Shown: one piece after another, positions 33,901 to 48,784 of the stretch
How the letters are laid out: every line of letters begins with the position of its first letter
Numbering within the stretch: the stretch's first letter is position 1
Assembly: GCA_017645925.1 (NCBI GenBank)
Contig: JAGCNN010000078.1
Span: forward strand, 1 to 57,183
Reading direction: 5' to 3'
DNA length: 57,183 nucleotides
Source: Bacteroidales bacterium
GTDB taxonomy: Bacteria; Bacteroidota; Bacteroidia; Bacteroidales; ML635J-15
The notes under the pieces: generated by a model
Told to the model about the DNA's origin: nothing
Seen by the model: only the letters and a program-made list of their open reading frames with translations
Databases searched by the model: none
Made by a program: the position numbers and the translations under genes

Positions 33901-34751
33901 AGGAAGAAGTCGGCATCACCGCTATCATTGGTTCCCGTAAAAGTATAACTGCCACTTGATGATGGCGTAAACGAATAAACACGTTCCTCGCCAGGCTCTG
34001 AATAACCACAACTTGTATATGAAGTCCATTGTCCAGAAGTGCCAAGAGTACCAGAATAAGTTGAGCCACAATACATTGGTGTTACATTGCTGCATGGGTC
34101 ACCACTCTGCGAACATGAACCATTGAAAGTAAGGATGATGTTAGTACGATTGGCATCAATAGCACCGGTAACAGAAGTTCCGGGATCAGAAGAATCTGCA
34201 TGCTTATACCAGTGCTTGCCTGTTGCTGAAGTATAATATACACTCTTAGAGCAACCGCCGGATGTACCACAACCTACGCCCCTAACAGCAATCATCAGCG
34301 ATTTACTTGCATCGTGACAGAATTGACTAGAAAGTGTATATGTATTCCAGCCTGTAGATGGTGTTGAAAGGGATGAATTTGAATAAACCAAGGTTGCTCC
34401 AGAAATATAGCTTGCAAATGTTGTACTAGCACCAAGAGCAAAAGATGTTTCAACATCCTTCATATATATCTGTATCGAAGACGTTCCACTACTTGCCGAT
34501 GATATATTATAAGCCAATTTCGTTATGTAACCAGCAGTATTAATATCGGCTCTATCATAAATATATACATCGTACTGCCATCCCCAAAAACCTGGCATAG
34601 GGTAATAGTTAGTACTTGTTCCTGTACCTATCGTTACATTTGTCTGCGCACTCACATTGGCTGAGCCCAGTACAAGCAACATAAACATCGCGACAAATGC
34701 CGTTCGAATTGGCATTACCTTATTCATGAATATATTGTATAATCTTTTCAT
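21948..34751 (-). CDS. Giant secreted T9SS cargo protein (4267 aa), type-B C-terminal sorting domain, multi-repeat adhesin-like
   Basis: This is a single uninterrupted ORF with a signal peptide (...VLGSANVSAQ). It has four ~121-aa PPC-like repeats and a P-domain-like segment (HSFIGDVQIKITCPNN...GCPLNGTWSISVCDSWGLDNG). Six He_PIG-like motifs follow (for example TGLPAGVTLTVSGNTVTVSGSP), then roughly 1400 residues of ~75-80-aa Ig-like repeats. Seven SprB-type repeats come next (CNGGTTSVTVLATGGNPGYTYNW ...). The C-terminus reads FTPNGDGVNDTW...VFNRWGQLMF. Confidence 0.9.
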   Translation of the reverse strand: MKRLYNIFMNKVMPIRTAFVAMFMLLVLGSANVSAQTNVTIGTGTSTNYYPMPGFWGWQYDVYIYDRADINTAGYITKLAYNISSASSGTSSIQIYMKDVETSFALGASTTFASYISGATLVYSNSSLSTPSTGWNTYTLSSQFCHDASKSLMIAVRGVGCGTSGGCSKSVYYTSATGKHWYKHADSSDPGTSVTGAIDANRTNIILTFNGSCSQSGDPCSNVTPMYCGSTYSGTLGTSGQWTSYTSCGYSEPGEERVYSFTPSSSGSYTFTGTNDSGDADFFLMSSCGTSGTNFAGGCWSLGSKTVTLTAGTTYYLIVDNYSSSNTASYTISVDCPQNDPCSNVRTMTCGTTYSGTLGTSGQWSSYSSCSYSEPGEEHVYAFTPTSSGSYTFSASQTTGDPDFFLMSSCGTSGTNLTGGCWGLGDKTVTLTAGTTYYLIVDNYSSSNTAGYTISVTCPAGPCGSATAMTCGTTYSGTLGTSGEWSSYTSCSYSEPGEERVYSFTPSSSGSYTFSATTTTGDPDFFLMSSCGTSGTNLVGGCWSTGNQTVTLTAGTTYYIIADNYRTSENAGYTLSVTCPSGNGPCASATTMTCGQTYTGTLGTSGSWSSYNGCGYSEPGEERVYAFTPTISGSHTFITSTTTGDPDFFLMSSCGTSGTNLVGSCWSTGNQTISLTAGTTYYLIVDNYSSSNSAGYTLSVTCPSDGDITGSTECETAQAFCATNENPGYDMNVTSDATDSPDGMCTFFHNATWWYLRISQDGAIEMEIRLTPNSSSTGDVDFGCWGPFENNTCDIQNDLNDNGANGFTYFSGSSYSNLHNSYNPNNVSTTSDTETPICVVGALASPSGNLVDFGGSTSNVEYLQIPNARRGQIYMVLIANYSRSEGTISFTQTNLGAPGAGLSDCSIVNDCNITSITTIAGDCAGDQTFSLSGLINFTDPPVDGTLTISDGAVSQVFTPPFVSPIAYSLSGLHGDGEQHTIMAAFASSTTNCEKITYIDAPMCEIDCPDATVSMTGYSEVIGDRYYFDVCLGSSVNMYGQQTGYTNPTWRWSINPHGGLEPYVVNTQTAPYIPNAEQGYDVSLTVSEGQCQTVAYGRIRVSGGLNTSVSDYSLGDICVGDSQEITIGGNGSDIQVTPEPHAIETSLGHAETTFIPDGTNCSTQCYTSDVTFYDFDDGAVVTNTDAIKYIKLNTEHSFIGDVQIKITCPNNREAIILPDYYSSDPSSGIYNGNAIDPYTYVWPDRVTTTRWHVGTSATNWYTGLHMLGLYDAFEEQNEAYTHTDGYTYYLASFSSNSDAQDFITNFLSRYYSGRDYTVYGIGPSQDNISYYVIGYTYQGDEGYIVWLTRDNTTEGNAYSFPSQAAAQYFLTYSCGGNGVVSSYEDVGRYRRILFGEPDFYDVNEADNLSATQICNGSDEHNLPGVGFDYAWTSSSQYTTVGYVYDVANMATPSTTYDNGVAESQNLYHVLPSNVDNGTQMYQPFQSFSNLIGCPLNGTWSISVCDSWGLDNGYVFDWEIALSEDLLPSNWDYTVNLDAVSTDCNSIASVNGNNLTVAPQTASNGEQTCNILLADNLGCSTTIPLSYTAVAPTITHVATSGDENQTVCEDQPIIDIQYTLGGSAVSATATGLPAGVTLTVSGNTVTVSGSPDAHGTYNYIITTVSASGLHCTEVTATGRIIVNEGNITPVFDQAGPYCEGTTVDDLPTTSLNNITGRWSPNITNSTNTYTFTPDAGQCATITTMLITVNPQPTLEYTSGTETLCKGETSANIIFTYGGGANGADVTGLPAGLVFNTDATAHQIVISGTPTANAGTYSYTITTTGATSPCTNLPVTRTITVTEPATLTLTSGDATQTVCVGSPVNFVYTYGGGAGGAEASGLPSGLTATLNTTNHTLTISGNATAAGSFTVTTTNVVAPCGDVTLTGTVEITQPATLVLLSDSPDAVLCQNGEWDDNIQYEFGGTATGATVTGLPDGLTYDVVGNVVTISGMATAGEGSYTYVVTTTSDPSSQCPDKSLQGVIEISTNATLVLTSAAGTDGQELCLPNQSFTTIVYTYGGGATGANVSDMPAGLTANVNTTAHTVTIAGTPTEPGSYDYFIATTGTIDACKPASTSGNITIGIDPTLEATGSRSQSFCLGNDLSTIVFTYGGGATGVSQTGTLPAGVSAVTDDAAHTLTLSGTPTEAGTFNITVSTTGASDTWNPCEEKAFDVSINVYDTPDVSIVASADEICNGSSVTLTSQPATFNSYRWTCTTSSDATYTVSPGLPTSVTVSSISVNPTVTQGSTDVVYNLRVTDGNGCTADVQQAITVSATPTANVTPANNTKCEEPYNGTITVSGFAGGLSGSTYTVDVTGQASQTTTGSDIVFSGLEAGSYTVTITNESTLGICYTEQTVTIGNTTTSPTVDISGALSICSGTTTTLTAHPSNGAGTFQYAWSDNTTTTAQLTTPAMTVSAPYSVTVTDENGCTASAQVEIQIGELPDVDAVAIPSICFGDDDVLIANVHNAGTGYTLEWAVVSTDPVGLEDYAGLLTTGGERITVTPGLVASFTYRVTLTSTACGDDAISTYTDEVTVMVNDIPKPNIPNPEVGSTEITCDITEITVVATGGSSYVWSNGVEGAQNTFTTEGVYTVTVTDDNSCTASTQVNITRNDEHPNVSITASPSTELTCTNNVITLTGTSTTDNAMLEWTPGSSSPSPAEYQVSAPRIYTVTATDPSNNCKSEASIEITIDESTPTVLIDQPSTITLNCTTQSITLTATGQGTLTWSPSNVATPDNYPASGDYVVTAVADNGCEASDLIHISLDESLPTITIEQSAPALTCTVSQVVLTASGAASYVWNDDNNSTGAQLIVTEGNREYTVVGTASNGCVASETVMINQDSDMSEVSIVPSMATLTCLLESVELTPAADPSYVLTWADGVDPTDIREAGTYMVTATAPNGCQRVATATVLVNRDEPDVTIVPPATTVLTCYNSYNNIPITLEATASEGATLSWDNGTLDVTAPGSYSVTATGENGCSATAEIEITEDVNVPNVEIGNNSNTTVLTCAGPSISVTLIDDSDADDYVWSGGENLTGTGNSFTAPATYYVTATAPNGCTSVDEITIEENITQPDFIEITNNTGTDVLTCDISVISVTAVFEMPAGSNDNIVSYSWSGGSFTNQATNELTTIGSYVVTATASNGCTNTAQIPISETMGRPHVEIDAPNTVLTCTTFELPITAIGDAVSYAWSGGRNPNEAANVVEATGIYTVTATAANGCTAVASLSITENTTPPTVSIRNESGFNQIDCNATSVHAIATGTGVLYQWTGGYEGAEIDLTAAGTYTVTAYGANGCSNTAYVVVTEDFTTPSPTIRITSENSELDCSHSQLTLGASSPDGVLYTWSNNQVGPNITVTQAGQYTVTVKAQNGCEGEASITIDQNSSAPIVYIDNMSGTETLNCNLHSIDIIAQAQNGSQYQFAWGNSLWGGGASQTVTTPGTYTVTVTSANGCTGSADITIRSDNTVPNLNVSSVTGSYELNCTTDHIDVTASGNGVAYAWSGGSNPSNYLNSFVGPGVYTVTSTGSNGCTASASFEITTDYNPPVFDVINETGTYEIDCNNPSIHIIMSNPDVTYRWNDNVVADDRTFTTHGQYTLTATGANGCTSTTSIGILENIVQPYVSITTTPETSELNCLTTAITLTANGGQSYMWSDGTDTQSNTVVTENLYTVTATAANGCTNTATIQIRQAPVFNVDFSSIGTIDCNGGTTSVTVLATGGNPGYTYNWSDGQTSQTATNLTAGNYTVTVYDSGGCSAALQCNVQQPMEITPSLVTRDLQCGVVEGSISAVVVGGTRPYTYIWSNGAADAPDNIGLAVGTYGLTVVDANMCQASAEAQILMQGMLSVNITVSQPISCHGYNDGIIAAQCPDAAGQPYYSWSTGNASPEIYNLFEGAYMVTITDAWGCTGQAGINLVSPPEMNLQTYIESPLCYDSHDGKIVATAFGGVAPYTYLWNTSTTESELTNVGMGTYSLTITDQVGCSAVKSITLEAPAAISIDATATGINCNGEKTGKIEVQATGGVEPYSYSIDNLIRPSMVSVFNNLNAGYYVVRVTDNNGCDAIESVLVYQPDALLMNVDIQHPFCRNSRTGQIEMSAVGGVEPYMYYWNESKSDVAVLPNMPSGEYTLYVVDANGCKSDETEVVLTDVDVPCLRIPNVFTPNGDGVNDTWLIDNVEMFPAAEVYVFNRWGQLMFTSKGYNEPWDGRYRGHFVPAGTYMFIIDLFDDEEPYRGSVTIIY
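32640..34103 (-). repeat. Four tandem ~365-nt coding repeats (PPC-like modules) inside giant gene 1
   Basis: Each unit has the form (D)PCSNV..M.CG.TYSGTLGTSG.W.SY..C.YSEPGEE.VY.FTP.SSGSYTF....T.GD.DFFLMSSCGTSGTN..GGCW..G..TVTLTAGTTYYLIVDNYSSSN.A.YT.SV.CP. By eye the units are about 80 percent identical at nucleotide level (compare 33160-33370 with 33520-33730). Confidence 0.85.
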
Positions 34752-34762
34752 AGTCGTATGTT

Positions 34763-35371
34763 TTATTTGTTCTTACCGTTTTCGTTATATTTAGCCGAAG
34801 AAACCTGCTCAATATTCTTAGACTTTGAGTTTCCATCAGACGGCTGCTGCATTACCGATTCGGTATTCATTGGAAATGCATGCAAATTGCTTGATTTTTT
34901 TTCTAAATTCTTATCTTCCGACACCCTCATTTCTGGTGAAGACGAAACCTTTGCAGGGGCAACATTGCCAGAATGTTTGGTTACCTTGACATTAGAAGGT
35001 TGCTTTTCGTAGTCCTGTGGCGATGGCGGAGGGAAATCACCGACATTTGCCTTATACTCGGCAAGCGCATCATTCACCGCATCCACAATCATGTCTGGCT
35101 CAACACTCTGCAAAGCCTCATACATAAATGTTTTACCATTCCTATATATCATGGCTCTATTTACATCAGGGTTTTCGAGTACAATCTTGGAAACGAACTC
35201 ACGCATTTCGGGCGAGTTTGGGAAATCCGCCATTTCAAAATATGTTATGCGCGTACCATTATCGTAAAACTTTGTAGTACCGCTGTCAGTAAGTTTAACC
35301 TGAGCAGAAATTGTCGTTGCTACGGACAAAATAATGACCGTATAAAAAATTCCTAATAAATATCTCTTCAT
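34763..35371 (-). CDS. Small secreted hypothetical protein (202 aa) immediately upstream of giant gene 1
   Basis: MKRYLLGIFYTVIILSVATTISAQ is a signal peptide. A ~100-aa folded-looking region follows, then a low-complexity S/K/N/P/E-rich tail. The stop lies 11 nt before the giant-gene start codon. Confidence 0.7.
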   Translation of the reverse strand: MKRYLLGIFYTVIILSVATTISAQVKLTDSGTTKFYDNGTRITYFEMADFPNSPEMREFVSKIVLENPDVNRAMIYRNGKTFMYEALQSVEPDMIVDAVNDALAEYKANVGDFPPPSPQDYEKQPSNVKVTKHSGNVAPAKVSSSPEMRVSEDKNLEKKSSNLHAFPMNTESVMQQPSDGNSKSKNIEQVSSAKYNENGKNK

Positions 35372-35466
35372 ACTCTACTTCTTTAATAATCAACAATAAA
35401 TATACAATCTACTCTATATCTTTATGCAATTCCGAACCATAAAAATATAGTTACAGAATTAAAGAC

Positions 35467-35497
35467 CAAATTTATACAATGATTTTTAAAATGCAAA
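35467..35497 (-). promoter_or_regulatory. Candidate Bacteroidota sigma-A promoter for the small-protein / giant-gene-1 operon
   Basis: On the minus strand, TAAATTTG (35474-35467) fits TAnnTTTG, and TTTG (35497-35494) lies 19 nt upstream. The start codon at 35371 is about 95 nt downstream. This is pattern match only. Confidence 0.35.
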
Positions 35498-35583
35498 AAA
35501 AATTTTAATTATTTTTTAAGAATTACAAAACTGCCATTTCTATGGGACAATATTTGACATCAAAAAACGCCCCAAAAAACATA

Positions 35584-35616
35584 CAAAAAAATAGCGGCGC
35601 AATGCATTGCGCCGCT
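35584..35616 (-). terminator. Intrinsic terminator (distal copy of the triplicated hairpin) for giant gene 2
   Basis: The perfect 24-nt palindrome AGCGGCGCAATGCATTGCGCCGCT (35593-35616) is followed on the minus strand by ATTTTTTTG. Only this copy of the three hairpins carries the T-tract. Confidence 0.75.
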
Positions 35617-35842
35617 ACAAATTGGTCATTATTATATTCTATTCCACAACAAACCTTTCCACCCGCACCTTGTTGCCAGCGCAATACATTGCGCTGCTAC
35701 AAATTGGTCATTACTATATTCTATTCCACAACAAACCTTTCCACCCGCACCTTGTTGACTGCGCAATGCATTGCGCCGCTACAAATTGGTCATTATTATA
35801 TTCTATTCCACAACAAACCTTTCCACAAATACCTTGTCGCCA
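35597..35842 (-). repeat. Three tandem copies of an 82-nt unit spanning the last 13 codons, stop codon and hairpin of giant gene 2
   Basis: The units lie at 35597-35678, 35679-35760 and 35761-35842. Each differs from its neighbour at about 5 of 82 positions. Each contains GCGCAAT(G/A)CATTGCGC plus ...GTGGAAAGGTTTGTTGTGGAATAG (VERFVVE-stop) on the minus strand. Only the rightmost copy is continuous with the ORF. Confidence 0.9.
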
Positions 35843-38800
35843 GAAACGAACCTTGCGAAATAAACGCCAGGCTTTAGGTCGTGGTAGAACTCCATCGTCA
35901 TGCCTTCGTCAACATATATGTCGCGGACATCAACTATTGCACCAGCAGCATCAACAAGCTGATAAACGACTTCGCCACTTATTCCTGCAAAGTCAACAGA
36001 GAATCGACCGTCGTTTGGATTCGGATAGAGCGATGCTGCAACTGCAACCTCATCGCCAACCGAAACCGCAATATGCCTGAATGTAACATGGAATGTATGG
36101 TTTGCATCAACATCAACAAATTCGTATGTATTTCCATCGGTAACAACGTATTCGCCATCAACGAAAACACTGTCAAGTTCGTAGCCGATATACGGGTTAA
36201 ATGTAAACACCTGAGTTGTACCCGGTGCTACCTCTACCTCGCCCAACGGTGAAAGTTCGCCGTGAGGTCCAGCCGTTGCCGTAATGTAATATACCAACGG
36301 ACGGAACGAAACATAGATGTAATGATTTTCGGTTACATTCTCGAAGCGATAAATATTGCTTTCGGGCGAGAATCCCTGTCCATCGACAACCACCCTGTCA
36401 AGCATATAGCCATCGTTAGGAACGAAAGTGAACTCAATGTCATCTCCATTGAGGACATACTGCGTTCCGTTAGGACTTATCGCGCCGTTTGCACCAGAAA
36501 CAGCCGTTATAGTCCACATCGGCAACAAGTCGAAGTTAACTGTTACAACATGGTCGGAAAGGACATTCTGCAGGGTGTATGTATTTCCAGAGAACTCAAC
36601 GCTTTCACCATCGACAAGCACTTCGGAAACAATATAACCCACATTCGGAGCGAAAGTAAATGTTATGTCGGAACCTTCATCAACTTCCTGTTCGCCAGAC
36701 GGACTTATGATGCCATGTTCACCAGCAATTGCTGTTACCGTATGCTTGTATGCCTCGAAGGACGCCGAAATAGTATGGTCGGCAACAACATTCTCGAACT
36801 GATACGATTCGACAACGTCCACAGCTTCGCCATCAACAAGCAGCGATGAAATGTAGTAGTGCTCATCGGGCGTAATCTGGAATGTCTGGTTTTCGCCCTC
36901 AACCACGCGAACCCTACCGCTAGGCGATATGCTTCCATGTTCGCCAGCCGTAGCTGTTATTTCATGCCTTATTATATTCATAGGTGTAAATATCGCAACC
37001 ACCGCATGGTCGGCAGTTATGCTGTCGAAAGTATAAGCATTGCCTTCAACTTCATGCGAAATATTGTCAACCAAGAAATTAAGCAATTCGTATTCTGCAT
37101 CGGGTTCAAACTCGAAAGTAAGGTTGTCGCCATGATTTACAGTTATCGAACCGCTTGGCGTAATAGTTCCGCCTTGTGCGTAAGCCACTATGGTATATGT
37201 ATTTATGGCAAACTCTGCATGTATTGAATGTTCTGCGGTTACATTTACAAAAGTATATTCACCTTCAGCAACTGCCGACGGAACAACCTCGTCGTCAACA
37301 GTTACCGATTCGATATGATAACCGGCATCTGCAACAATGTAGAATGTCTGGTCGGCACCGTTTGCCACCGAAACATCGCCATTAGGAGTTATTGTACCAT
37401 GTTCACCGAATGAAACTGCAATCGAGTAATATACATTTTCGACAAACGAAACACGCACCGTATGGTCATCGGTAATATTCTCAAAAGTATAATTGTTGCC
37501 ACCAGCAACTAGCTCCTCCATAGCATCAGAGCCATCAACCAAGAACTCATGTATTATGTAGCCCTCCTCAGGAATTACCGAAATTGTGAGGTTTTCACCT
37601 TCTTCTAAAACGACATCGCCATTAGGAGTTACAATGCCATTTTCACCAGCATCTACATGAATTGTATGGTAAATTATCCTGTCGAATGTTGCGTGAATTG
37701 TATGCGATGCATCAACATTTTCGAAAGTGTAAATGTAGCTACCCTGCTCAAGCTGTTCGGCAATACCATCCACAATCACGTCGCCCGGACGATAACCCTC
37801 ATCGGGAATTATAACAAACGATACCGTATCGCCACGGTCGGCAGCCGTAACACCTTCGGTAACAATACGACCACCTTCGCCAGCCGATGCTGTGAAAGTG
37901 TAGCGTTCGGTAAATGTTGCTACCAGCGTATGCTCTGCATTCACATCAGCAAGAGTGTAGATTCCGTCAACGACTTCGTCAGAAACATCTTCACCATCAA
38001 GCGTCAATGAGAGCAAATCGTTGTATTCATCGGGCATGATGACAAATTCGGCACTTTCGCCAGGAGCTACCTCTACCCTACCATCAGGTGAAATAGAACC
38101 ATTTCCAACCGACGAAACATCTATCACATAGTCGGAAACAAAAACTCGGAAATCATCGATATACAAGCGATACATATTGGGAGCAGACTGACATACAATT
38201 GCAATTTCTACAAGCTGTCCAGCAAATTCGGAAAGGTCAACTGGTCCGTAGGTCTGGTATGTTTCGTTTGTTACAGTCAGCGAATCCAATCTAACAAGGC
38301 CATTATTTGCAGTTCCAACATACACCGAGAAGGTTTCCGGATAAGAGAAATTGCCTGCCCTGTACTTGAACTCCATCTTGGCATTCTGAAGAATCTTCAA
38401 CTCAGGTGAAACAAGATAGTCATCTGCTTGATTTGTGCGTGAGAAGTTGTAAACGGCCTCGCCATTTGCGATAGACCAAGTCCTATTATCATCGTTATAA
38501 CTATATATTTCCCAGCAATCATCAGCAGAGAAATCCTGCTCGTACGGGAGCGTAAACACACCGCAGGCAGTCTTTTCTGTCCAGCTAGTTGCACCACAAT
38601 TCGACTGTACATATATATAATAGTAGGTATAAATATCCAAACCTTCTATTACCGACTTATGCGTAGAATCAGGTTCAATAGTGCTATCGAACAAATCTGC
38701 TGTTTCTGTATCAGGGTCAATAGGCAGAGAAGAAATCTTCAAGTTGTATGAAGTTTCGTTATGTGCAGGGAATAAATACATTACTGCCGAATCGTTATAG

Positions 38801-41800
38801 ACAAAGAAAAATATGTCATCAGCAGACGGATTCGGACAGTAGTTTTCATCGAGGCCAACATTTACAGTCCAAGTCTTTGTCGTTACACCATCCTCGGCTG
38901 TAACTATATATTCGACAGGTTCCGAGAAATTTCTCCTTACGCCCGACTGTACATTGACAGTAGCATTTTCCGAAATTGTGAAGGTCGGAATATAAAACAT
39001 ATAGTTAGATACTTCGGCGACAAATACCGATATGGTAGCATTTTCCGAATCTATAATCGATTCTGAAGTCTGCTCATCAATTTCGAAAGTAAGTATTTCC
39101 GCTTCGGTGTTCATTGGTCTCAACAACAAATTGTCTATCGCACATTCGCGATAACCATTCAATACAAAGTCGAAACGAGCCTCTCCTTCATACTCCGGAA
39201 CTGCTATCTTCATTCTTGCCATTCCGTTGCTTGATGCATTTTGGATTGCAACAACCCTTAAAGTATCAGTTTCACTATTTACAAACATTACATACAGGGA
39301 ATCGGGACGGCTTATATTTTGAGTTGACTGCAAAACATCAAACTCAAGTGCATAATGTAGTCCAGATTCAAAATTGAATAGCGGAGTCTGCAAACGAGCA
39401 ACCATCTGCGAAGTGCCGGCTGCCAAATGAGCCTCGCCATTGCTTACCGACCAAACATTTTGTCCGCTGCTTGTTGTCCTCCAACATTCGGGAAGTTCAC
39501 CATCAGCAACTGCAAAGTCTTGTGTATATGGCAAGTCAACAGCAGGGCAATCGGTTGCAACATTGACAGTCGCATCATACCATTCGCTTTCGATTCCTTC
39601 ATAGCAAGCACATTGAATTTCGGCAGAAATAGTGTACTCGGTGCTAGCCTGAAGTCCATCAATATGCAAACTCGGCTCGTTAACCGTCGTTTCGACAACT
39701 TCACCTCCATTCAATGAATATTTTACGTTCCAAGCGCCTGATATTGCATTAACATCCGACCATGCCAAAACTACGTTGTTTTCGCCAACCGACCTAACTA
39801 CCATATTATAAGGTGCAATGCAGTCAACAGTCTTTTCGATTGTCAAGTTGTCAACATAAACGCCACCAGCATTGTTTGACTTTCCTACAAGTATCACATA
39901 GTTAATACCTGCATCTACCCTTGCATTTAATGTATATCTGTACCATCCAGCCGACAATTCGCCATGTACATTTTCGCCATCCGAAATTTGGTAATTCTTC
40001 GAAACGAAACCAAGTTTCTGCGGAGTACCGTTTACTATGTCAGGATAAGTATTAACCCAAATTTCAACGCCCTCGTCCATTGCCGGCTCTGATGATGTCG
40101 AACGATAAACATCAAGACTGATGTTGTATCCGTTGATGCTTTCAACAAACTTAAGTCCCATAGATGACAAGTTGTGAACCGAGCCTACCTTTGTATCGGC
40201 AAGCATCGCCTTAGGCGTTGCATTGTCGCCCAACACCGTTGAAGCACCCATCCATGCGCCATTAACATAGCTTAGACCTGCACCCGAACCGACTGCCGTC
40301 CTTTCCTGCGACCAGCATACAGGCGGGAATATTCCAGAATTGAAGTCCTCGGTATATGGGAAGCTCTTGACGATTAAGCAATTGGTTGTAAACGAGTATT
40401 CTGCAAAACCTGAATAATCGTTGTCGCAAACAGAACGTATCCTTACATTGTATGTAGTGGAGAATTGCAAACCTGTTATGTTTATAGTATTTTCGTCAAC
40501 AGTAACAGTAGTATATTCAGTTTCCGCTTCCGTCTTGTATCCGACTTCCCACTGAGTCATATTGAAGCCATTCCACAACAATGTTACTTCGTCATCCGCC
40601 AAATTTACTGTTGCAATATCTTCCGGCATCTGGCACGATGCAATTGTAGAAACGGTAAGCAACGACCAATCGCTATTGCCATTTCCACCTTGACAATTTG
40701 CACGGACATAAATGTCATAAAGCGTAGATTCTGCAAGTCCTGTAATCGCGTAGTACGGCTCATCAACATTCACTTCAGTGCCTGCGGTATTAACATCAAA
40801 GCCCGAAAGTCCATATTTTAATGTCCAGCTATCGCCAACATTGTCGGATGACCAAGCCACGTCAAGTTCGTTTTGCAAACGAGTAGCTTCCATATCGTTT
40901 ACGGCATAGCAGTGAGATATCGCGTTTATCCGAATTTCGTATGAAATATCCTCGCCATCGCTATCAACGATTACATAATACGAACCGGCACTGCAATCTA
41001 CGACAAATGACATATTACTATCATTTGTCTTCGAGTCAATCATATATGAATGCATCGTGCCGCAAGAATTCATTACAAAAGCACTGAAATAACCGCCGTT
41101 TGACCATAGGCTAATATTAAGCATCTTCCTATTTTCCACGTCAATCCAATATACAGCATCGTTGCCCGAAAGCACAAATGCATTTTCAGGCATATCATTA
41201 TAATAGGTATTCAGCATACTAAACAAACCTGCTGTTGATGATGAATGGGCGTATGGCAAATCATTTTCAGCATCGACCACATAGGGATTTGTACAATCGG
41301 CGCCAAGTGGAGAATCTGCATACGAAATATTAACCGTCCATTCCTTAACTGTACCATCCTCAGCAGTTACAACAAACGCAACCGGCTCAGAGAAATTGTA
41401 GGACATTCCGTTTGAATGGTTTATGCTAGCCAAGTATGAAATTTCAATCTCAGGGGTTATTGATTCAACATCAAACATACGGCTAATAGTTGCATCAACA
41501 GTTGCATTTCCTGAATTAATGTCAACGCTCAACATACCTTCGAATGCAAACGAAAGTATTTCTGCCTCGGCAATTGCAACATTACGATTTACAATTATTG
41601 TCCAATCCTGCGTCATTCCTGACTCGGAAGTTACAGTATATACAAATGGATCGTTAAGGTCGATTGCCGTTCCTATTTCTGGACTTATAGTTGCGTTGTC
41701 AGAAATTTGAATGAACGGAGTTACATTATCCAAGTTCCACGAATATGGGACATTGCAAGTAACTGTATGGTTTTCATTATCAATAATGACATTTTCAGCG

Positions 41801-44800
41801 CCATCAAAGTCAAAAGCCAATATTTCATTTTCATTAGAAAGTATTTCGATGGAAATGTCATCTACTGCTGCTGGAGGATTCGTACCACCAGAGCCATCGT
41901 TCTTCCAGAATAATACCAAATAATAGTCTCCAGCTGCAGGCAATAATTGTTTTCCTTCAAAATGTTGCCAAGCATAAACACCAGACAATACTCCACTCAA
42001 ACCATACCAACCACTTGGTGCATCTGAGGAAGTGCTACCCATACCATTTGCACCAGAAAACATAGGATTTATATTCGTTGGCACTATAAAAGCCATCATG
42101 TTATCCCAGCCGCCTTCTCCAAAGCACTTCCAATCGAATGAAAGACCGACTCCCACAACACTATCAGTATGGAATTTGAGATATGCATAAGAATACGAGA
42201 TACAAGATTGACAATAAGTATTTTCAACTCCACTATTCTGAGAAATATACAAGGATTTTCCACTTGCCGATGTAGCCGTTCCTACATACCAACCATTTGC
42301 ATCGTTGTGGAAATACCAATTTTCAAGATATTCCGAATTGAAATTCTGAGTATAAGGCAATGTTACATAATCATTATCTGGAGTCTGGAAATCGAACACC
42401 ACCCATTCGCTAATCTCAGCATCAGAACATACCGAAGATATATATGCGTGGTACGAATGTCCGGGTTCAAGACCAGATTGCACGCATGAAGTAGCGGTTA
42501 CATTTGTATATGCAGCCGATGCCAGTTCAGCATCAGTCATCTCCACCTGCGATATGTAAACATTAAAATTATTGTATTCATACGGTTGCACCCAGTTTAG
42601 CGATACCGATGTTGAAGAAACGCTTGCAGTAACGCCATACGGAGATTCGCAAGGTGGCAATGTTGTAAAACTTGGGCCTGCAACCCATGGGCTGTAGTCG
42701 GTTTCGGAACAATACGACCTAATGTATGTATAATAAGTGGTATTTTCAGTAAGTCCAGTTACCATGTATGGGCTAGATGACACGATTGTTGGTGCTTCAG
42801 TTGCAGCGGCAAGGTCGCTCGACTCGGAAACAAGCAGCTGCCACTGTGGAATCGAGCCTACTGATGTCCACGAAATTTCAGCAGATGTCTTACCTACATT
42901 GTCAACACCTACATTTCCGGAGAACAAGCAGTCGGTTTTATATGTAACACTTATGTTATCTACTGCGGCAGGAGGATCTTGCCTTTCATCAAAGATGTTC
43001 ATCCAGAAAAATACTAAATAATAATCTTCAGCATTAGCCACATTTATATCACAAACATTTGTCTGCCAATTATAACCAGCACCAGACACATAATATTCTG
43101 ACAGAGCGTCAGTATTTGTAGCAAGCAACCAACCGTTAGGAACAGAGGTCGAACCACCAATTCCATTGCCATATCCTTCACTCAGATATGGATTCAATGA
43201 CACAGGAACCAAGAATACCCTTAGACAATCAATATGATCACGTCCAAAACATCTCCAATCGAACTGCACCCTCACTACGCTTGGATGGTCGATATTCAAA
43301 CGGCAGTATGCATACGAATAGTTGTAACCCCAACTGTAAGCATCCATATACCCGTTGCTATAACCTTCATCATCTGATACGTATAAAGATTTTTCACTAT
43401 CATGGGCGACAGCTCCTCCCCAGTACCAGCCTACAACGCCGTTGCTAATAGCCCAATTTTCCATTATACCACTCTCAAAATTCTGAGTATAAGGCAGCGG
43501 CATAGCCTCCAATTCAGGTGTAGTAAATTGGGAATGCACCCAAGCGCTGTATTCATCATCACCACATTCAGTTGCTGCATATAGGTGGTATGTATGACCT
43601 GGAGTCAAATCCGAAAAAGACTTATTTCTTGCATTGCACAACTCATATCCTTCAGACGCAAGTTCTACATCCGTTTTTTCTGTTTCAGAAAATACTATGC
43701 GCGTACCAAGCCTATCATATACATTATACCACGACACTTGAGCCGTTGTTGGAGTAACTAATACGCTTATATCGTATGGTGCCTCACATGGCGGATAAGT
43801 TGTAAAGCTTACACCCTCGCACCATGCACTCTGTTCCGAGGCCGAGCAATAAGAACGAACAAACACGTTGTATTCGGTATTCATTTCAAGGCCAGTGATT
43901 GTTGTATTGGTTGCATCCACAAGCACAGGCTGCTCTGTTGCCGACTCGGGACTATCGGCAGTAGTTACAAGAACCTGCCACTGGGTAGAAACGCCAACCT
44001 CATCCCATTCCAAATCAACAGAAGTCTTGCCTAGTCCAGAATATGCCAAATTCATGACGGGCACACAATTCGACACAATTTCAATGCTAATGTTATCGAC
44101 TGCTGCCGGTGGGTTGTCGCCTCCGCTATAATCGTTTTTCCAGAACAACACAAAGTAATAGTCGCCTGGATTTGTAAGCGTAACAGTCGATACACTTGTT
44201 GACCAATATGGATTACCAGATTTATTTCCATTACCGACATCAATCCATGAAGAATATTGTTCATTATAATTAGAGCCCATTCCATTTACTGCACCAGCCG
44301 AAAGATTAGGATTTTCAGATACCGGAATCATAAATGCACGAAGCAAATCGTAATTGGTTTCACCATTAGCCAACCAATCAAACGATACACTCACCACTGC
44401 AGGCTGATCGAGATGAATACGACAGTAAGCATACGAAAATGACCCTTCCCAATCTCTATAATTATGGGAAACGCCATTATCATCCGATATGTATAGCGAT
44501 TTTTCACCACCTCTTGCAACCGCTGTTCCCATATACCAACCATTCATATCATTGTTCAGATGCCAGTTTTCGAGAACATCTCCTTCAAAGTTCTGATGGT
44601 ATGGCAACGACATTGCCTCATCGGTAGTTGTTGTAAACTGATAGTGCACCCAGTCGCTCAAAAAACCCTCACCGCAAACTGTCCTTACATAAAAATGATA
44701 AGTACTACCTGCAGCAAGTCCCGTATTTGTGTACACCCTTGAATCAACGGTTTCGTATTCAGAATCTGTAAGTGCATTCAAATCCGAGCTTGACATTTCC

Positions 44801-47800
44801 GTTTCGGAAAGATATACATGGAAATCTAACATGTTGTATTGCTGTGCCCATGTTAAGGTTGCCGTATTGGGAGTTACAACAGCAGCAACGTTATCGGGCT
44901 GCTCACATGGAGGCAAGGTTGTGAAATAATATCCATATACCCAATCACTTTGGTCGGACTGAGAACAATAAGCACGTACATACACATTGTAATCTGTATT
45001 CGCTACAAGTCCATTGACAGTTACCATTGTATTGCTTACCAACTCAGGCGTTAAGCTTGTCGAATTCGGATCGTTGGATGTTGTAACCAGAACCTGCCAT
45101 TGCGAAGCATCTGACTCTACATTTGACCACGACACCACTGCCCAAGTCATACCATAACTATCAACGTTGATATCCTCAACCGGTCGGCATGTTGGATAAG
45201 TAGTGAAATATCCACCCCACGCCCAAGCGCTTTGCTCTGATTCCGAACAATATGTTCGCACATATACATAATATTCAGTATTTGGCGTTAGACCGGAAAC
45301 ATTTGCAGTAGTGCTGTTTACAAGCATCGGGGTTTCGGTAGCGTCATTAGCTGATGATGACCGCGAAACCAGCACCTGCCACTGTGAAGCATCTGCGTCA
45401 ACATTTATCCACGACAGATTTACCCATGTATCATCCCAACTATCAATGTCAACATTCCCGACAGGAACACATGATGGCAAAGTTGTGAACTGAACGCCAC
45501 TACTCCATTCGCTCTGGTCCGATTCGGAACAATATGTACGCACATATACATAATATTCAGTGTCTGGCGTCAGATTGGAAACACTTGCAGTAGTGCTGTT
45601 TACAAGCATCGGAGTTTCGGTAGCTTCTGATACTGAAGCCGACTGCGAAACCAGCACCTGCCACGGAGAAACACTGCCGTTTGCATACCACGAAATTTCA
45701 GATGAATACTTGTCGTAATTGTCAACGCTTACATTTGCGACAGGCAAACATGATGACAATATTTCTATGCTTATATTATCCACTGCAGCAGGAGGATTTG
45801 AACCACTATAGCTATCATTTTTCCAGAAGAATACAAGATAATAGTTGCCAGTTTCCGTCAATACAACATTCTTAGCACTATGCTGCCAATCTTCATACCC
45901 TTGCAAACAGCCATCCGTTTCCGAAATATCAATCCAGCCATTTGGTGTTGGGTTGCTTGACCCTGCCATGTCGTTTGAAGTACCAGCATTAAGATTCGGA
46001 GATTTCGATACTGGAATCATAAATGCACGTAGCACATCCCATGAATATTCACCAATATTTTTCCAATCAAAAGAAACATTAACTAGGCATGGATTTCCAA
46101 CATTCAACATGCAATAAGCATACGAAAACGATGTATTATTAGTACTATATTCATTATTTACTCCATTATTATTTGAAATATACAATGAATATGTGCTTTC
46201 GTTTGCCGTAGCAGAGCCAACATACCATCCGTTACTTGCATTATTAAATGTCCAGCCGTTAACGCTTCCGTTCTCAAAATCTTCATAGTAAGGCAAAGTG
46301 AAATTCGCCGCACCCGTCGTAAAGTGGACACTAGCCCACGAACCTACCTCGTATTCATTGCATACCGGACGCACATACACATTGTAATATGTTGCAGGCT
46401 CCAGTCCACTCACCGAATAACTGCTGCCCGTTACATTTATCAACGAAGCCGACTCCAGCTCGCTAACACTCATTGTGTTAGTTGTTACATACAACTGATA
46501 CTGCAAGACATCATACGCGTACGACCATGAAATATCAGCAGTACTAACACCTGCATTTACCGCAAGATTGTCAACCGTAGTACATACTTGCTGTGTAACA
46601 AATCCTACAGCACTGCTCCATGCACCATAAATCTCCTGTGTACAATAACTGCGTATGAATGCATAATACTGAGTAGCGGGCGAAAGACCAGTTACTGTTT
46701 GTGTTGTCGATGTCATTGCGACAGGCGATTCGGTTGCCGTAGCCGGATTAGATGAAGTTGAAACCAATATGTCGTACTTCACGCCATCTCCAGAGGTACG
46801 CGTCAACGACACAGATGTTGAACTTTGGACATTAGCAGTTAAAGCAGCTGTCTTGCCGCATGTGGTAACAAAGCTTAGAGCACTGCTCCATTCTCCATGC
46901 CTATTTTCAGAACAATAAGCACGTATGTACGCATAATACTGTGTTGCCTGTGTAAGACCAGTTATTGTTTGTGTCGCGGAAGTCATCTCTACTGGAGTTT
47001 CGGTTGCCGTTTCTGGATTCGAAGATGTTGAAACCAAAACTTCATACTTTACGCCATTGCCTGATGCACGCGTCAACGACACTGATGTTGAACTTGGAAC
47101 TGCATTACCCAATGTAGCCGTAGCCGTACAAGGAGCAACTATCTCTATGTCGTCAACAGCAGCGGGAGGATTGGTACCTGCACTGTTATCGTTCTTCCAA
47201 TAGAATACAAGAATATATTCTCCCGCGGATGGAATATCAACGTTCAATGATGAAGTTCTCCAATCGCTTGCCGAATAAGTCCATAAGAATGGTCCTGTCG
47301 CTCTATAACTTTGCGAAGAATCTGCCACATTAATATAACCATCTGGCAATGAATTTGTGTTGCCAGTAATATCATCTGCAGGCGGACAGTCTGTGCCAGA
47401 TGGCACAAGAGCAGCATACATTGCATCCCAGCAATTAGTTTCACCACGAGCCTTCCACTTAAACGACACCGAATATGTTCCTTCACTGGCCAAATTGATA
47501 TAACGATAAGCGTACACGTATGACGGAGATGAAGTTGTATAAGCATTTGACGAACCATCGTTTGTTATGTACAACGCCTTTGATGAACTAGCACTAGTTG
47601 CAGTACCTATCATCCAATAGTTTGTGTACGTGCCGTTTACAAATATCCAACTGGAATTTTCAGCAGCATTTTCAAAATCGCAGTAATAAGGTGTCACGGC
47701 TGGCGCTACAAAAGAATAATACCGACCAGCACCCGGAAATACAGAATATGTAGTACTAGTATATGTAGTGGAATATGATGCGGTATGATCGCTTGGATTT

Positions 47801-48405
47801 ACATACCAGAATTTATTACCATCAACGTTTCCAATACCAATCTGGTAGTTAGACGGTGCATTTGTGTAGTCGCCACTATACACAATCCTAATCTCGTTTG
47901 TTCCTTCGTACAACTGGATTTGGAACTTTATATAGTTTGTTCCACTAGTGCTTGAGGTCAAATGTAAAAGGCCTTCTATTACCCTCACATTAATTGCTCC
48001 ACCTGTATATAAACCTGTTTTCACATATCCTGCAGCACCTGTACTACAATCTTTTCCGACAGCTGCAATAATTGGCGTATTTGATGAATAATTTGACGAA
48101 TTAAACGGATTTTGATAATGGCTACCGGATATAGCAGTGCCACCCAATCGTATTCGTCCATTTGAATTGGCAGAAAACTGCGTATATTCAACACCATCGT
48201 ACACAAATGTAAAACCAATATCTGTCACACCAGAAGCCCAATCATCTCCTCCCGATTGAATTATCTCTGTAAATTCCGGAGAAAGAAATGTACCATCATC
48301 TCCTGTTGAAAAACGATAAATCTCAAGTCCCTGAGCATGTACATTAGCAACATAAGACAGCAATGCCATTAACACAAAAACTGCAATGCGTATTTTATTT
48401 CTCAT
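35803..48405 (-). CDS. Giant secreted T9SS cargo protein (4200 aa from the ATG at 48405), type-A (Por_Secre_tail-like) C-terminal sorting domain
   Basis: This is a single uninterrupted ORF. The ATG at 48405 gives MRNKIRIAVFVLMALLSYVANVHAQ (the track start at 48453 is a TTG). It has many FN3-like modules (W...VLVS....A.E.P......T.TGL...T.Y..YVR.YC). Five beta-sandwich modules end in PPAAVD(D/N)I(E/S)(I/V), and three more diverged ones are present. Modules of the IL.F.F...TISP type follow, then nine InlB-B-repeat-like units. The C-terminus reads LYPNPNDGRFSVDF...GVYFARFVSGDKVFVERFVVE. Confidence 0.9.
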   Translation of the reverse strand: MRNKIRIAVFVLMALLSYVANVHAQGLEIYRFSTGDDGTFLSPEFTEIIQSGGDDWASGVTDIGFTFVYDGVEYTQFSANSNGRIRLGGTAISGSHYQNPFNSSNYSSNTPIIAAVGKDCSTGAAGYVKTGLYTGGAINVRVIEGLLHLTSSTSGTNYIKFQIQLYEGTNEIRIVYSGDYTNAPSNYQIGIGNVDGNKFWYVNPSDHTASYSTTYTSTTYSVFPGAGRYYSFVAPAVTPYYCDFENAAENSSWIFVNGTYTNYWMIGTATSASSSKALYITNDGSSNAYTTSSPSYVYAYRYINLASEGTYSVSFKWKARGETNCWDAMYAALVPSGTDCPPADDITGNTNSLPDGYINVADSSQSYRATGPFLWTYSASDWRTSSLNVDIPSAGEYILVFYWKNDNSAGTNPPAAVDDIEIVAPCTATATLGNAVPSSTSVSLTRASGNGVKYEVLVSTSSNPETATETPVEMTSATQTITGLTQATQYYAYIRAYCSENRHGEWSSALSFVTTCGKTAALTANVQSSTSVSLTRTSGDGVKYDILVSTSSNPATATESPVAMTSTTQTVTGLSPATQYYAFIRSYCTQEIYGAWSSAVGFVTQQVCTTVDNLAVNAGVSTADISWSYAYDVLQYQLYVTTNTMSVSELESASLINVTGSSYSVSGLEPATYYNVYVRPVCNEYEVGSWASVHFTTGAANFTLPYYEDFENGSVNGWTFNNASNGWYVGSATANESTYSLYISNNNGVNNEYSTNNTSFSYAYCMLNVGNPCLVNVSFDWKNIGEYSWDVLRAFMIPVSKSPNLNAGTSNDMAGSSNPTPNGWIDISETDGCLQGYEDWQHSAKNVVLTETGNYYLVFFWKNDSYSGSNPPAAVDNISIEILSSCLPVANVSVDNYDKYSSEISWYANGSVSPWQVLVSQSASVSEATETPMLVNSTTASVSNLTPDTEYYVYVRTYCSESDQSEWSSGVQFTTLPSCVPVGNVDIDSWDDTWVNLSWINVDADASQWQVLVSRSSSANDATETPMLVNSTTANVSGLTPNTEYYVYVRTYCSESEQSAWAWGGYFTTYPTCRPVEDINVDSYGMTWAVVSWSNVESDASQWQVLVTTSNDPNSTSLTPELVSNTMVTVNGLVANTDYNVYVRAYCSQSDQSDWVYGYYFTTLPPCEQPDNVAAVVTPNTATLTWAQQYNMLDFHVYLSETEMSSSDLNALTDSEYETVDSRVYTNTGLAAGSTYHFYVRTVCGEGFLSDWVHYQFTTTTDEAMSLPYHQNFEGDVLENWHLNNDMNGWYMGTAVARGGEKSLYISDDNGVSHNYRDWEGSFSYAYCRIHLDQPAVVSVSFDWLANGETNYDLLRAFMIPVSENPNLSAGAVNGMGSNYNEQYSSWIDVGNGNKSGNPYWSTSVSTVTLTNPGDYYFVLFWKNDYSGGDNPPAAVDNISIEIVSNCVPVMNLAYSGLGKTSVDLEWDEVGVSTQWQVLVTTADSPESATEQPVLVDATNTTITGLEMNTEYNVFVRSYCSASEQSAWCEGVSFTTYPPCEAPYDISVLVTPTTAQVSWYNVYDRLGTRIVFSETEKTDVELASEGYELCNARNKSFSDLTPGHTYHLYAATECGDDEYSAWVHSQFTTPELEAMPLPYTQNFESGIMENWAISNGVVGWYWGGAVAHDSEKSLYVSDDEGYSNGYMDAYSWGYNYSYAYCRLNIDHPSVVRVQFDWRCFGRDHIDCLRVFLVPVSLNPYLSEGYGNGIGGSTSVPNGWLLATNTDALSEYYVSGAGYNWQTNVCDINVANAEDYYLVFFWMNIFDERQDPPAAVDNISVTYKTDCLFSGNVGVDNVGKTSAEISWTSVGSIPQWQLLVSESSDLAAATEAPTIVSSSPYMVTGLTENTTYYTYIRSYCSETDYSPWVAGPSFTTLPPCESPYGVTASVSSTSVSLNWVQPYEYNNFNVYISQVEMTDAELASAAYTNVTATSCVQSGLEPGHSYHAYISSVCSDAEISEWVVFDFQTPDNDYVTLPYTQNFNSEYLENWYFHNDANGWYVGTATSASGKSLYISQNSGVENTYCQSCISYSYAYLKFHTDSVVGVGLSFDWKCFGEGGWDNMMAFIVPTNINPMFSGANGMGSTSSDAPSGWYGLSGVLSGVYAWQHFEGKQLLPAAGDYYLVLFWKNDGSGGTNPPAAVDDISIEILSNENEILAFDFDGAENVIIDNENHTVTCNVPYSWNLDNVTPFIQISDNATISPEIGTAIDLNDPFVYTVTSESGMTQDWTIIVNRNVAIAEAEILSFAFEGMLSVDINSGNATVDATISRMFDVESITPEIEISYLASINHSNGMSYNFSEPVAFVVTAEDGTVKEWTVNISYADSPLGADCTNPYVVDAENDLPYAHSSSTAGLFSMLNTYYNDMPENAFVLSGNDAVYWIDVENRKMLNISLWSNGGYFSAFVMNSCGTMHSYMIDSKTNDSNMSFVVDCSAGSYYVIVDSDGEDISYEIRINAISHCYAVNDMEATRLQNELDVAWSSDNVGDSWTLKYGLSGFDVNTAGTEVNVDEPYYAITGLAESTLYDIYVRANCQGGNGNSDWSLLTVSTIASCQMPEDIATVNLADDEVTLLWNGFNMTQWEVGYKTEAETEYTTVTVDENTINITGLQFSTTYNVRIRSVCDNDYSGFAEYSFTTNCLIVKSFPYTEDFNSGIFPPVCWSQERTAVGSGAGLSYVNGAWMGASTVLGDNATPKAMLADTKVGSVHNLSSMGLKFVESINGYNISLDVYRSTSSEPAMDEGVEIWVNTYPDIVNGTPQKLGFVSKNYQISDGENVHGELSAGWYRYTLNARVDAGINYVILVGKSNNAGGVYVDNLTIEKTVDCIAPYNMVVRSVGENNVVLAWSDVNAISGAWNVKYSLNGGEVVETTVNEPSLHIDGLQASTEYTISAEIQCACYEGIESEWYDATVNVATDCPAVDLPYTQDFAVADGELPECWRTTSSGQNVWSVSNGEAHLAAGTSQMVARLQTPLFNFESGLHYALEFDVLQSTQNISRPDSLYVMFVNSETDTLRVVAIQNASSNGMARMKIAVPEYEGEARFDFVLNGYRECAIDNLLLRPMNTEAEILTFEIDEQTSESIIDSENATISVFVAEVSNYMFYIPTFTISENATVNVQSGVRRNFSEPVEYIVTAEDGVTTKTWTVNVGLDENYCPNPSADDIFFFVYNDSAVMYLFPAHNETSYNLKISSLPIDPDTETADLFDSTIEPDSTHKSVIEGLDIYTYYYIYVQSNCGATSWTEKTACGVFTLPYEQDFSADDCWEIYSYNDDNRTWSIANGEAVYNFSRTNQADDYLVSPELKILQNAKMEFKYRAGNFSYPETFSVYVGTANNGLVRLDSLTVTNETYQTYGPVDLSEFAGQLVEIAIVCQSAPNMYRLYIDDFRVFVSDYVIDVSSVGNGSISPDGRVEVAPGESAEFVIMPDEYNDLLSLTLDGEDVSDEVVDGIYTLADVNAEHTLVATFTERYTFTASAGEGGRIVTEGVTAADRGDTVSFVIIPDEGYRPGDVIVDGIAEQLEQGSYIYTFENVDASHTIHATFDRIIYHTIHVDAGENGIVTPNGDVVLEEGENLTISVIPEEGYIIHEFLVDGSDAMEELVAGGNNYTFENITDDHTVRVSFVENVYYSIAVSFGEHGTITPNGDVSVANGADQTFYIVADAGYHIESVTVDDEVVPSAVAEGEYTFVNVTAEHSIHAEFAINTYTIVAYAQGGTITPSGSITVNHGDNLTFEFEPDAEYELLNFLVDNISHEVEGNAYTFDSITADHAVVAIFTPMNIIRHEITATAGEHGSISPSGRVRVVEGENQTFQITPDEHYYISSLLVDGEAVDVVESYQFENVVADHTISASFEAYKHTVTAIAGEHGIISPSGEQEVDEGSDITFTFAPNVGYIVSEVLVDGESVEFSGNTYTLQNVLSDHVVTVNFDLLPMWTITAVSGANGAISPNGTQYVLNGDDIEFTFVPNDGYMLDRVVVDGQGFSPESNIYRFENVTENHYIYVSFRPLVYYITATAGPHGELSPLGEVEVAPGTTQVFTFNPYIGYELDSVFVDGEYVVTDGNTYEFVDVDANHTFHVTFRHIAVSVGDEVAVAASLYPNPNDGRFSVDFAGISGEVVYQLVDAAGAIVDVRDIYVDEGMTMEFYHDLKPGVYFARFVSGDKVFVERFVVE
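36045..38140 (-). repeat. Nine tandem ~77-aa divergent InlB B-repeat (Listeria-Bacteroides repeat)-like modules, protein-level repeat
   Basis: The pattern Y.(I/V).......G.(I/V)(S/T)P.G...V..G....F...P..GY.......VDG.........Y.F.NV...H.(I/V)...F recurs nine times directly before the CTD. The copies are diverged at nucleotide level. Confidence 0.7.
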
Positions 48406-48784
48406 ATAAATAAATTTTATTCGTTTCAAATATTTAAAAATCTCGTGAGGCAAGCAACCTACAAAAAGGAAACAATACCTCTAATAAAAATAAAAACACG
48501 CAAACATACAACTTAAAAAACAAAATAGCAAGGGAAAGTTTACAATATTGCAATATGCCCAATAGTGGGATAGCCGACATATCAGGTAGAGTTAAACGAT
48601 ATGAATATACTATCAAACATAAAGGGAAATGAAGATTCGCTTTTTTACCTCCCGCTCAAGCCGCGGAGGCTTTTACTTTTTTATTCGCCCCTACAATTGA
48701 TTTTCAGCGGTGCTCATGATTGTCTTCGACAATTGTTGGCAAAAAAGTAAACAAAAAACCATGTCCGCTGCGTCTGCTTCGCTA

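Follow-up and report, generated by a model that had tools for sequence, protein, structure and literature searches.

Why should the last codons of a very long gene, its stop codon and the hairpin behind it stand three times in a row? The question arises in the window analyzed here, a 57,183-nt contig (JAGCNN010000078.1) from an uncultured rumen Bacteroidales bacterium, where a giant gene on the minus strand ends in an array of three 82-nt units. An earlier reading, made from the letters of the window alone and referred to below as the sequence-only reading, had noticed the triplication and had offered for it either a duplication scar or a functional stack of RNA hairpins. We read the array as a head-to-tail cluster of a dispersed, GTAG-tagged palindrome (REP) and consider it likely that the REP was reiterated locally along with some 60 nt on its 5′ side, in this case the end of the gene.

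The end of a giant, putative T9SS cargo gene is triplicated

The features of the locus are as follows, with the units lettered A to C and the hairpins already labeled as REPs.

35803..48453, minus strand: giant, putative T9SS cargo gene, 4216 aa, stop codon TAG at 35803-35805
~35809-36030, minus strand: putative C-terminal sorting domain of the giant gene, ending in ...GDKVFVERFVVE
35761-35842, minus strand: unit C (gene-proximal), with the true last 12 codons and stop, a 20-nt spacer and a one-headed REP
35761-35782, minus strand: REP-C, GTAGCG followed by GCGCAATGCATTGCGC, with no U-tract behind it
35679-35760, minus strand: unit B (middle), with pseudo gene end ..NKVRVERFVVE and pseudo-stop at 35721-35723
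35679-35700, minus strand: REP-B, one-headed REP variant GTAGCA GCGCAATGTATTGCGC
35597-35678, minus strand: unit A (distal), with pseudo gene end GNKVRVERFVVE and pseudo-stop at 35639-35641
35592-35618, minus strand: REP-A, two-headed REP, GTAGCG-GCGCAATGCATTGCGC-CGCTA
35585-35591, minus strand: T7 run behind REP-A (REP-A and T7 together, 35585-35618)
35372..35584, minus strand: remaining intergenic region, with the presumed promoter region of the 202-aa gene in it, conserved in related species (alignment by eye)
34763..35371, minus strand: downstream 202-aa gene, without Pfam match, the query used to fetch conspecific contigs

The giant protein matches the Por_Secre_tail family (PF18962) over the full length of the model (1-75 of 75) and up to its own final residue, with 25.6 bits when the last 200 aa were searched and 27.6 bits in the whole-genome scan, around a cut-off of 27. 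Por_Secre_tail matches number about 116-119 in this 3.1-Mb, 75%-complete metagenome-assembled genome (MAG), a very large T9SS cargo repertoire.

Tandem Repeats Finder reported a single array at 35597-35826 (period 82, 2.8 copies, 94% matches, no indels, score 425), and the three head-to-tail units, which together span 35597-35842, align with one another without gaps; the triplication is thus borne out. On the minus strand, unit C reads ...SGDKVFVERFVVE, the stop codon TAG, AATATAATAATGACCAATTT and GTAGCG-GCGCAATGCATTGCGC. The order recurs in units B and A, but their coding end is ...NKVRVERFVVE-TAG. Unit C alone joins the open reading frame 35803..48453, and CGCTA with the T7 run is present behind unit A only, both as first described. 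Several dimensions had to be corrected. The repeated coding part is 12 codons plus 1 nt, beginning 37 nt ahead of the stop, rather than 13 codons, and what had been called a 43-nt spacer is the entire noncoding part of the unit, in which the stop codon lies 20 nt from the GTAG head and 26 nt from the 16-nt palindrome core. The extent of the palindrome had been understated; in unit A it is GTAGCGGCGCAATGCATTGCGCCGCTA, with a 12-bp stem. Neighboring units had been said to differ at about 5 of 82 positions, which is right for A and B (5 mismatches) and wrong for C and B (10), while A and C differ at 5. Unit B has five scattered private substitutions, and columns 17-82 of unit A equal those of unit C (66 nt, no difference). 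The two plus-strand open reading frames that had been set aside as artifacts (35542-35877 and 35607-36080) are present, lie antisense to both the repeat and the giant gene, and give no sign of being genes.

Two other regions of the window, 33058-34086 and 52980-53949, are tandem repeats within genes, one in giant gene 1 (period 366, 2.8 copies) and one in the gene of an 891-aa T9SS cargo protein (period 147/294/441). These long repeats probably correspond to domains that recur within the proteins.

The hairpin is a dispersed GTAG-tagged REP

The source genome, a 3.09-Mb MAG of 311 contigs that is 75% complete, was searched with the 82-nt consensus, which returned the three units and about 68 partial matches, all of them in the first 25-47 nt, the hairpin end. 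The sequence-only reading had named a dispersed REP-like element as the finding that would speak against a unit tied to this gene end, and the outcome is divided: about 22-30 nt of each unit are dispersed, and the remaining 55-60 nt or so, the coding and spacer part, are absent elsewhere in the MAG. The REP core occurs 61 times in the MAG with up to 2 mismatches, and GCGCAAnnnnTTGCGC, allowing up to 1 mismatch, occurs 79 times, compared with 4 times in a shuffled genome. From the flanks of these matches the consensus is TGTAGCG-GCGCAATGCATTGCGC-CGCTACA, a GTAG-headed palindrome; 50/79 cores carry the GTAGCG head, 35 on one side and 15 on both. A one-headed REP measures 22 nt, and the perfect palindrome extends up to 30 nt (TGTAGCGGCGCAATGCATTGCGCCGCTACA). 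The 22-nt headed pattern has 61 strand-hits in the MAG and is present in 15/39 genomes of the genus with 2 to 61 strand-hits each, and its reversed control has 0 in the MAG and 0 everywhere else.

The array hairpin is therefore a GTAG-tagged REP, by virtue of its short palindrome, conserved GTAG end, many dispersed copies and RAYT association (see below). It had been taken as specific to this locus and is in fact a genome-wide and genus-wide element tied to a RAYT-like transposase. Units B and C contain ordinary one-headed copies and unit A a two-headed one, all three with the GTAG head on the gene-sense strand and in the same orientation. Rfam models gave only sub-threshold chance matches on the array (miRNA and PinT models). 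Membership in a BIME was considered and ruled out, as the three REPs share one orientation rather than alternating.

REPs show no association with T9SS tail genes. The suggestion that the same unit might follow other genes with a T9SS C-terminal domain was not upheld: a headed REP lies within 300 nt downstream of 1/116 Por_Secre_tail genes, two further REP-core matches downstream of such genes are headless palindromes, and 113/116 lack any. Whole-genome Tandem Repeats Finder detected no other array of coding end plus REP in the MAG; the other REP-bearing arrays, on C1, C56, C169, C183, C208, C214 and C254, include a coding end in no case, and an array on C146 begins past a stop codon and contains no REP.

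The MAG is unusually REP-rich for Bacteroidales. Intergenic mosaic arrays with periods of 114-196 nt, built from several palindrome families (GTACAGACGCAATATTTTGCG, GTAGAGACGTTGCGAGCAACGTCTA and AATCGCGCCATGGCGCGATT), are found at C1:5357-5727, C183:7851-8356, C214:11216-11838, C254:11434-11861, C56:9940-10174, C208:2109-2428 and C169:9409-9659.

RAYT-like transposases carry the REP in their own genes

Several RAYT-like Y1 HUH open reading frames (ORFs) are encoded in the MAG. For three of them (~180-220 aa) the best family is NCBIfam NF047646 (REP_Tyr_transpos), with E values from 5.5e-11 to 3.1e-19; their scores of 42.5-69.3 bits fall under the curated cut-off of 80 bits, and the match is split in two by an insert. 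Paralogues above the cut-off exist in other genomes of the genus. In two of the ORFs the insert is a REP:

C64:723-1373, minus strand: RAYT-like ORF with embedded REP at C64:991-1018
G000:C214:32192-32809: RAYT-like ORF with embedded REP at 32529-32556

These two ORFs are 87% identical paralogues of 217-219 aa, and their insert is the array's own REP (GTAGGGGCGCAATGCATTGCGCCCCTAC) in a GTAGGG...CCCTAC variant, translated in frame. Judging from coordinates, the REP also lies inside the RAYT-like ORF in at least five other species of the genus (G008, G003, G011, G012 and G041). Homologues of the C64/C214 ORF were detected in 12/39 genomes of the genus, all of them REP-positive (12/12), and in 0/24 REP-negative genomes, a co-occurrence to be read as consistency rather than statistics, since the genomes are kin and not independent. 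Another RAYT-like ORF, C55:8693-9301 on the minus strand, has a series of near-identical heptapeptide repeats (ACIVQSC/ACIVQST/ACIAQST...) where its C64 paralogue has the REP.

Related species have a single gene end

The orthologous gene end was located in ten other species of the genus, at 72-84% DNA identity, and is present as a single copy in 10/10. Behind the gene, four of these species (G020, G012, G003 and G051) have a single two-headed REP with a T-run, e.g., TTTGTAGCGGCGCAATGCATTGTGCCGCTATTTTTT; four others (G010, G024, G002 and G043) have plain terminator hairpins at the gene end. Because the gene end is single in ten relatives and is followed by REP and T-run in four of them, the REP stands where a terminator is expected, and the triplication is confined to the lineage of this species. 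The ancestral gene end was a single copy, and comparison among these species suggests that it ended in one two-headed REP and a T-run that would have served as the gene's intrinsic terminator.

In G011 (L028, C38) and G050 (L054, C14), a different, GTGG-headed palindrome (TTTGTGGCGACATGCTGTGCCATGTCGTCACAAA) stands just past the stop codon in place of the GTAG REP and is followed by a separate terminator, which suggests that REP families turn over at one site. In L029 (G003:C128) and L055 (G051:C2), the interval from stop to REP contains short tandem motif insertions (caattgacaatggataatgtaca...), and a segment of about 50 nt (ccctatgtcatgctgaacttgtttc.gcatctg) is common to the same interval of both genomes. 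The intergenic region behind the giant gene is a hotspot for small insertions.

Copy number varies among strains

Conspecific contigs were fetched from ENA, JGI, and Logan assemblies by means of the exact 202-aa protein (34763-35371).

L036, L037, L039, L040, L041: 3 units, array base-for-base identical, 99.8-99.9% identity to the window over 6.6 kb
L038: 1 unit, 0 differences from L036 and L041 across ~6.4 kb of shared flank
L042: 1 unit, about 1.8% diverged

Copy number, which the sequence-only reading had proposed to compare, thus varies among strains, with three units in six assemblies including the window and one unit in two (L038 and L042). The identical three-copy array in five independent metagenome assemblies shows that it is real and not produced by assembly. 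That strain variants were strung together from a genome with one or another copy number is highly improbable: the source is a fragmented MAG and in two Logan contigs the break falls exactly on the REP, but a dispersed 30-nt palindrome will cause such breaks when k is small, and they are uninformative on copy number. The same three-copy sequence recurs in those five assemblies from different samples with two contig-naming styles, a single-copy genome could not supply the junctions GCGC|AGTCAAC and GCGC|TGGCAAC, an assembler errs by collapsing tandem repeats and not by expanding them, and "k141"-style contigs yield both the three-copy and the one-copy form.

The single unit of L038 and L042 consists of columns 1-16 of unit C, the shared columns 17-82 and the tail of REP-A. 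As C and A are identical over 66 nt, this is the exact product of recombination between the two, and the single copy of L038 fits a recent collapse through that stretch. The zero-SNP background of L038 likewise speaks for a recent change from three units to one, given that a recent expansion from one to three could not yield copies that are 6-12% apart. Collapse to one unit leaves the protein unchanged.

In exact-pattern scans, from which records close to the MAG may be missing, the invariant 28-mer had no match in public genome contigs, and neither this 28-mer nor the A/B-type 26-mer had one in JGI metagenome contigs. The 90% cluster of the 202-aa neighbor has a single member and offered no further close alleles.

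In a tract of about 400 nt inside the giant gene (36322-36724), all seven conspecific contigs agree with one another and differ from the window at eight clustered SNPs. Either a short stretch of recombination or a consensus of mixed strains in the MAG could account for this cluster.

Origin of the array and divergence of its units

The reading of the array as a scar of tandem duplication of gene end and hairpin is supported. Under the local reiteration that we favor, the starting point would be one two-headed REP with T-run, acting as the intrinsic terminator of the giant, putative T9SS cargo gene. An illegitimate, REP-dependent event would then have joined the 3′ foot of the REP (...CATTGCGC|) to a coding site 82 nt upstream (TTTC|TGGCGAC), and a second round would have produced three units. 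The copies would have diverged afterwards, and the array would now be collapsing to one unit via the 66 nt identical in C and A. Template switching provoked by the hairpin, or illegitimate recombination, is judged the most likely mechanism, and cleavage and strand transfer by a resident single-strand transposase of the RAYT type would be a serious alternative.

The junctions are where these mechanisms can be compared. One breakpoint is the 3′ foot of the REP core, without the second arm, and the other is TTTC|TGGC in the coding sequence. The same foot is the usual end of the 35 one-headed REPs genome-wide, although most of those keep a further CG pair. Microhomology at the junction is minimal, a single C or an imperfect C.GC.A, so that slippage, which had been proposed at the outset, is poorly supported. 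At the new junctions ACAAG comes to lie opposite UUUGU, and the resulting outer helix of 5 bp in REP-C and REP-B imitates the second arm that they lack.

By analogy with the transposase of Escherichia coli, the array might be a natural footprint of RAYT activity in Bacteroidales, cut at the REP foot and at a coding C|T and then joined, though we think this unlikely. E. coli TnpA-REP cuts single-stranded DNA at the feet of REPs and at C|T in the linkers, and by strand transfer it can build up tandem copies in vitro (Ton-Hoang et al. 2012, PMC3333891). The parental sites here are C|T on the coding side and C|C on the REP side, an imperfect fit because the required C|T is available on the coding side only. 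If the array were such a footprint, REP-RAYT systems could copy adjacent gene ends, and diverged pseudo-ends such as GNKVRVERFVVE would be a by-product that might occasionally be recombined into the sorting signal.

Local reiteration has to accommodate the divergence of the copies. They differ at 5-10 of 82 positions (6-12%), compared with 0-1.8% between the three-copy and one-copy strains, so either the array is much older than the strains and its single-copy alleles go back to repeated deletions, or the copies did not come from simple in-place duplication. All five A/C differences are confined to columns 5-16, and four of them are adjacent (GCGG versus ATTT); the outgroup sequence, GTATTG in both G012 and G020, marks three clustered changes as derived in A and B, and one in C. 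The array may predate the 1.8% strain split, with an independent collapse in L042 and partial homogenization of A with C; or the A/B type may have come from a diverged allele or from a multi-base event. A simple unequal crossover was rejected as the source of the mosaic unit A, as it predicts the hybrid in the middle of the array and the hybrid stands at the distal end; no simple unequal-crossover scheme yields the observed order of C, B and A-hybrid. Unequal recombination between CTD-coding ends, the scar proposed in the sequence-only reading, is unsupported, the coding part being unique in the genome and the REPs being unlinked to T9SS tail genes.

The gap between copy and strain divergence is also what would favor an import, in which the extra units came by illegitimate or unequal recombination from a diverged allele of the same gene end (that of GNKVRVERFVVE) in another strain or species. 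The A/B-type differences would make a plausible alternative coding end, with N for D, R for F/L and the synonymous codon GTG for GTA, and unit B has single bases in common with other species (its ATGT loop with G012 and G051, TAGTAATGA with G020), but such shared bases are transitions and can recur. An in-frame GTGCGG/KVRV allele was not found in the genomes of the genus or in JGI metagenome contigs (0 hits), and the junctions of REP core and coding sequence would still require an illegitimate event. We therefore rate an import as improbable.

Predicted transcript end and possible function

A terminator consensus scan singled out REP-A, with 12 pairs and the T7 run, as the sole terminator-like site, in line with the initial observation that only the most distal hairpin looks like a terminator. 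REP-A with T7 is predicted to work as the giant gene's intrinsic terminator and has a single-copy counterpart in four related species. Hairpin energies are −10.9 kcal/mol for REP-C, −15.2 kcal/mol for REP-B and −20.6 kcal/mol for REP-A (z of −4.3 for REP-A). The RNA behind REP-B is UGGCAAC and that behind REP-C is AGUCAAC, neither of them a U-tract. Read-through of both is expected for that reason, and RNA polymerase would pass REP-C and REP-B and stop at REP-A and U7. The mRNA would bear two extra hairpins in its 3′ untranslated region (UTR), three in all, probably as near-neutral passengers.

A selected stack would assign these hairpins a task: either the three REPs shield the 12.6-kb mRNA from 3′ exonucleases or, at the level of DNA, they form clustered sites of the gyrase or IHF type behind a very long transcription unit. 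Taken together, we give these two versions little credence. The array has persisted until its copies were 6-12% diverged despite an easy one-step collapse, all three hairpins are still foldable (the new base of the REP-B change G66A has a pairing partner in the first base of unit A), and REPs reportedly stabilize upstream mRNA in E. coli (Higgins, McLaren and Newbury 1988). The whole 3′ UTR also folds better than shuffles (z of −4.5), but this follows trivially from repeating a palindrome. Against a selected stack, the copy is single on a zero-SNP background, in a strain diverged by 1.8% and in all ten related species, and the neighboring 12.8-kb giant gene has no such element downstream. Because a one-copy allele exists on an identical background and all related species have single copies, and because most sorting-domain genes (113/116) lack the element and no second array of this composition exists in the genome, a required function for the extra hairpins appears unlikely.

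Whatever built it, the array calls for caution in annotation, since two spurious plus-strand ORFs and two pseudo gene ends result from the repeat, and the REP is a place where contigs break. The natural pair of three copies and one copy on a zero-SNP background could be used to study the effect of REP hairpins on a very long mRNA, as well as the growth and collapse of REP clusters.

Comparison with known systems

REP-stabilized mRNA 3′ ends and REP-type terminators are familiar from enterobacteria through the work of Higgins and Newbury. The array resembles them in having a stable hairpin just past the stop codon and, by prediction, within the mRNA; unlike them, it has the U-tract of an intrinsic terminator at the distal copy only. 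REP copy number is about 50 in this 75%-complete MAG, compared with more than 100 typical of classical REP families.

With the BIME/RAYT system of E. coli, in which local amplification of BIMEs varies between strains, the locus shares a REP family, a resident Y1 HUH transposase and strain-variable local tandem amplification (PMC3333891). REP orientation alternates in BIMEs, with defined linkers between the REPs, whereas it is uniform in the array. The putative transposase is closest in kind to TnpA-REP subclass 2.4 (RAYT group 4), which is abundant in Bacteroidetes and Cyanobacteria and for which a REP inserted in the transposase gene is a hallmark (Quentin et al. 2018, PMC6006769). ORFs of about 190-220 aa, the embedded REP, the HUH (DHVH), WQ and YIxNN motifs and the Bacteroidetes host are common to both, and the histidine motif differs, being DHVH here and NH[IFV]H in the published table (PMC6006769); the subclass was assigned from the motifs and the embedded REP only.

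The array itself belongs to a described kind, in which GTAG-tagged REPs form head-to-tail (HT) clusters and the DNA flanking them is reiterated as well (Di Nocera, De Gregorio and Rocco 2013, PMC3733652). As in those clusters, a short palindrome with a GTAG tail lies mostly downstream of genes, and REPs end near or overlap stop codons (PMC3733652); unlike in those clusters, what is reiterated beside the REP is a gene's coding end, and the REP is predicted to double as a terminator. GTAG REPs were assigned in that survey mainly to Proteobacteria and Cyanobacteria, and Bacteroidetes were credited with CGTC-type repeats only (PMC3733652), so that a GTAG-type family, with a RAYT that carries the REP in its own gene, is reported here from uncultured rumen Bacteroidales, where such systems have hardly been described. 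The features particular to this case are that host, the REP's predicted second role as terminator and the coamplified coding end. The array is thus a real but ordinary variant, probably neutral, and it is unusual among REP clusters only in having the coding end of a gene in its flank.
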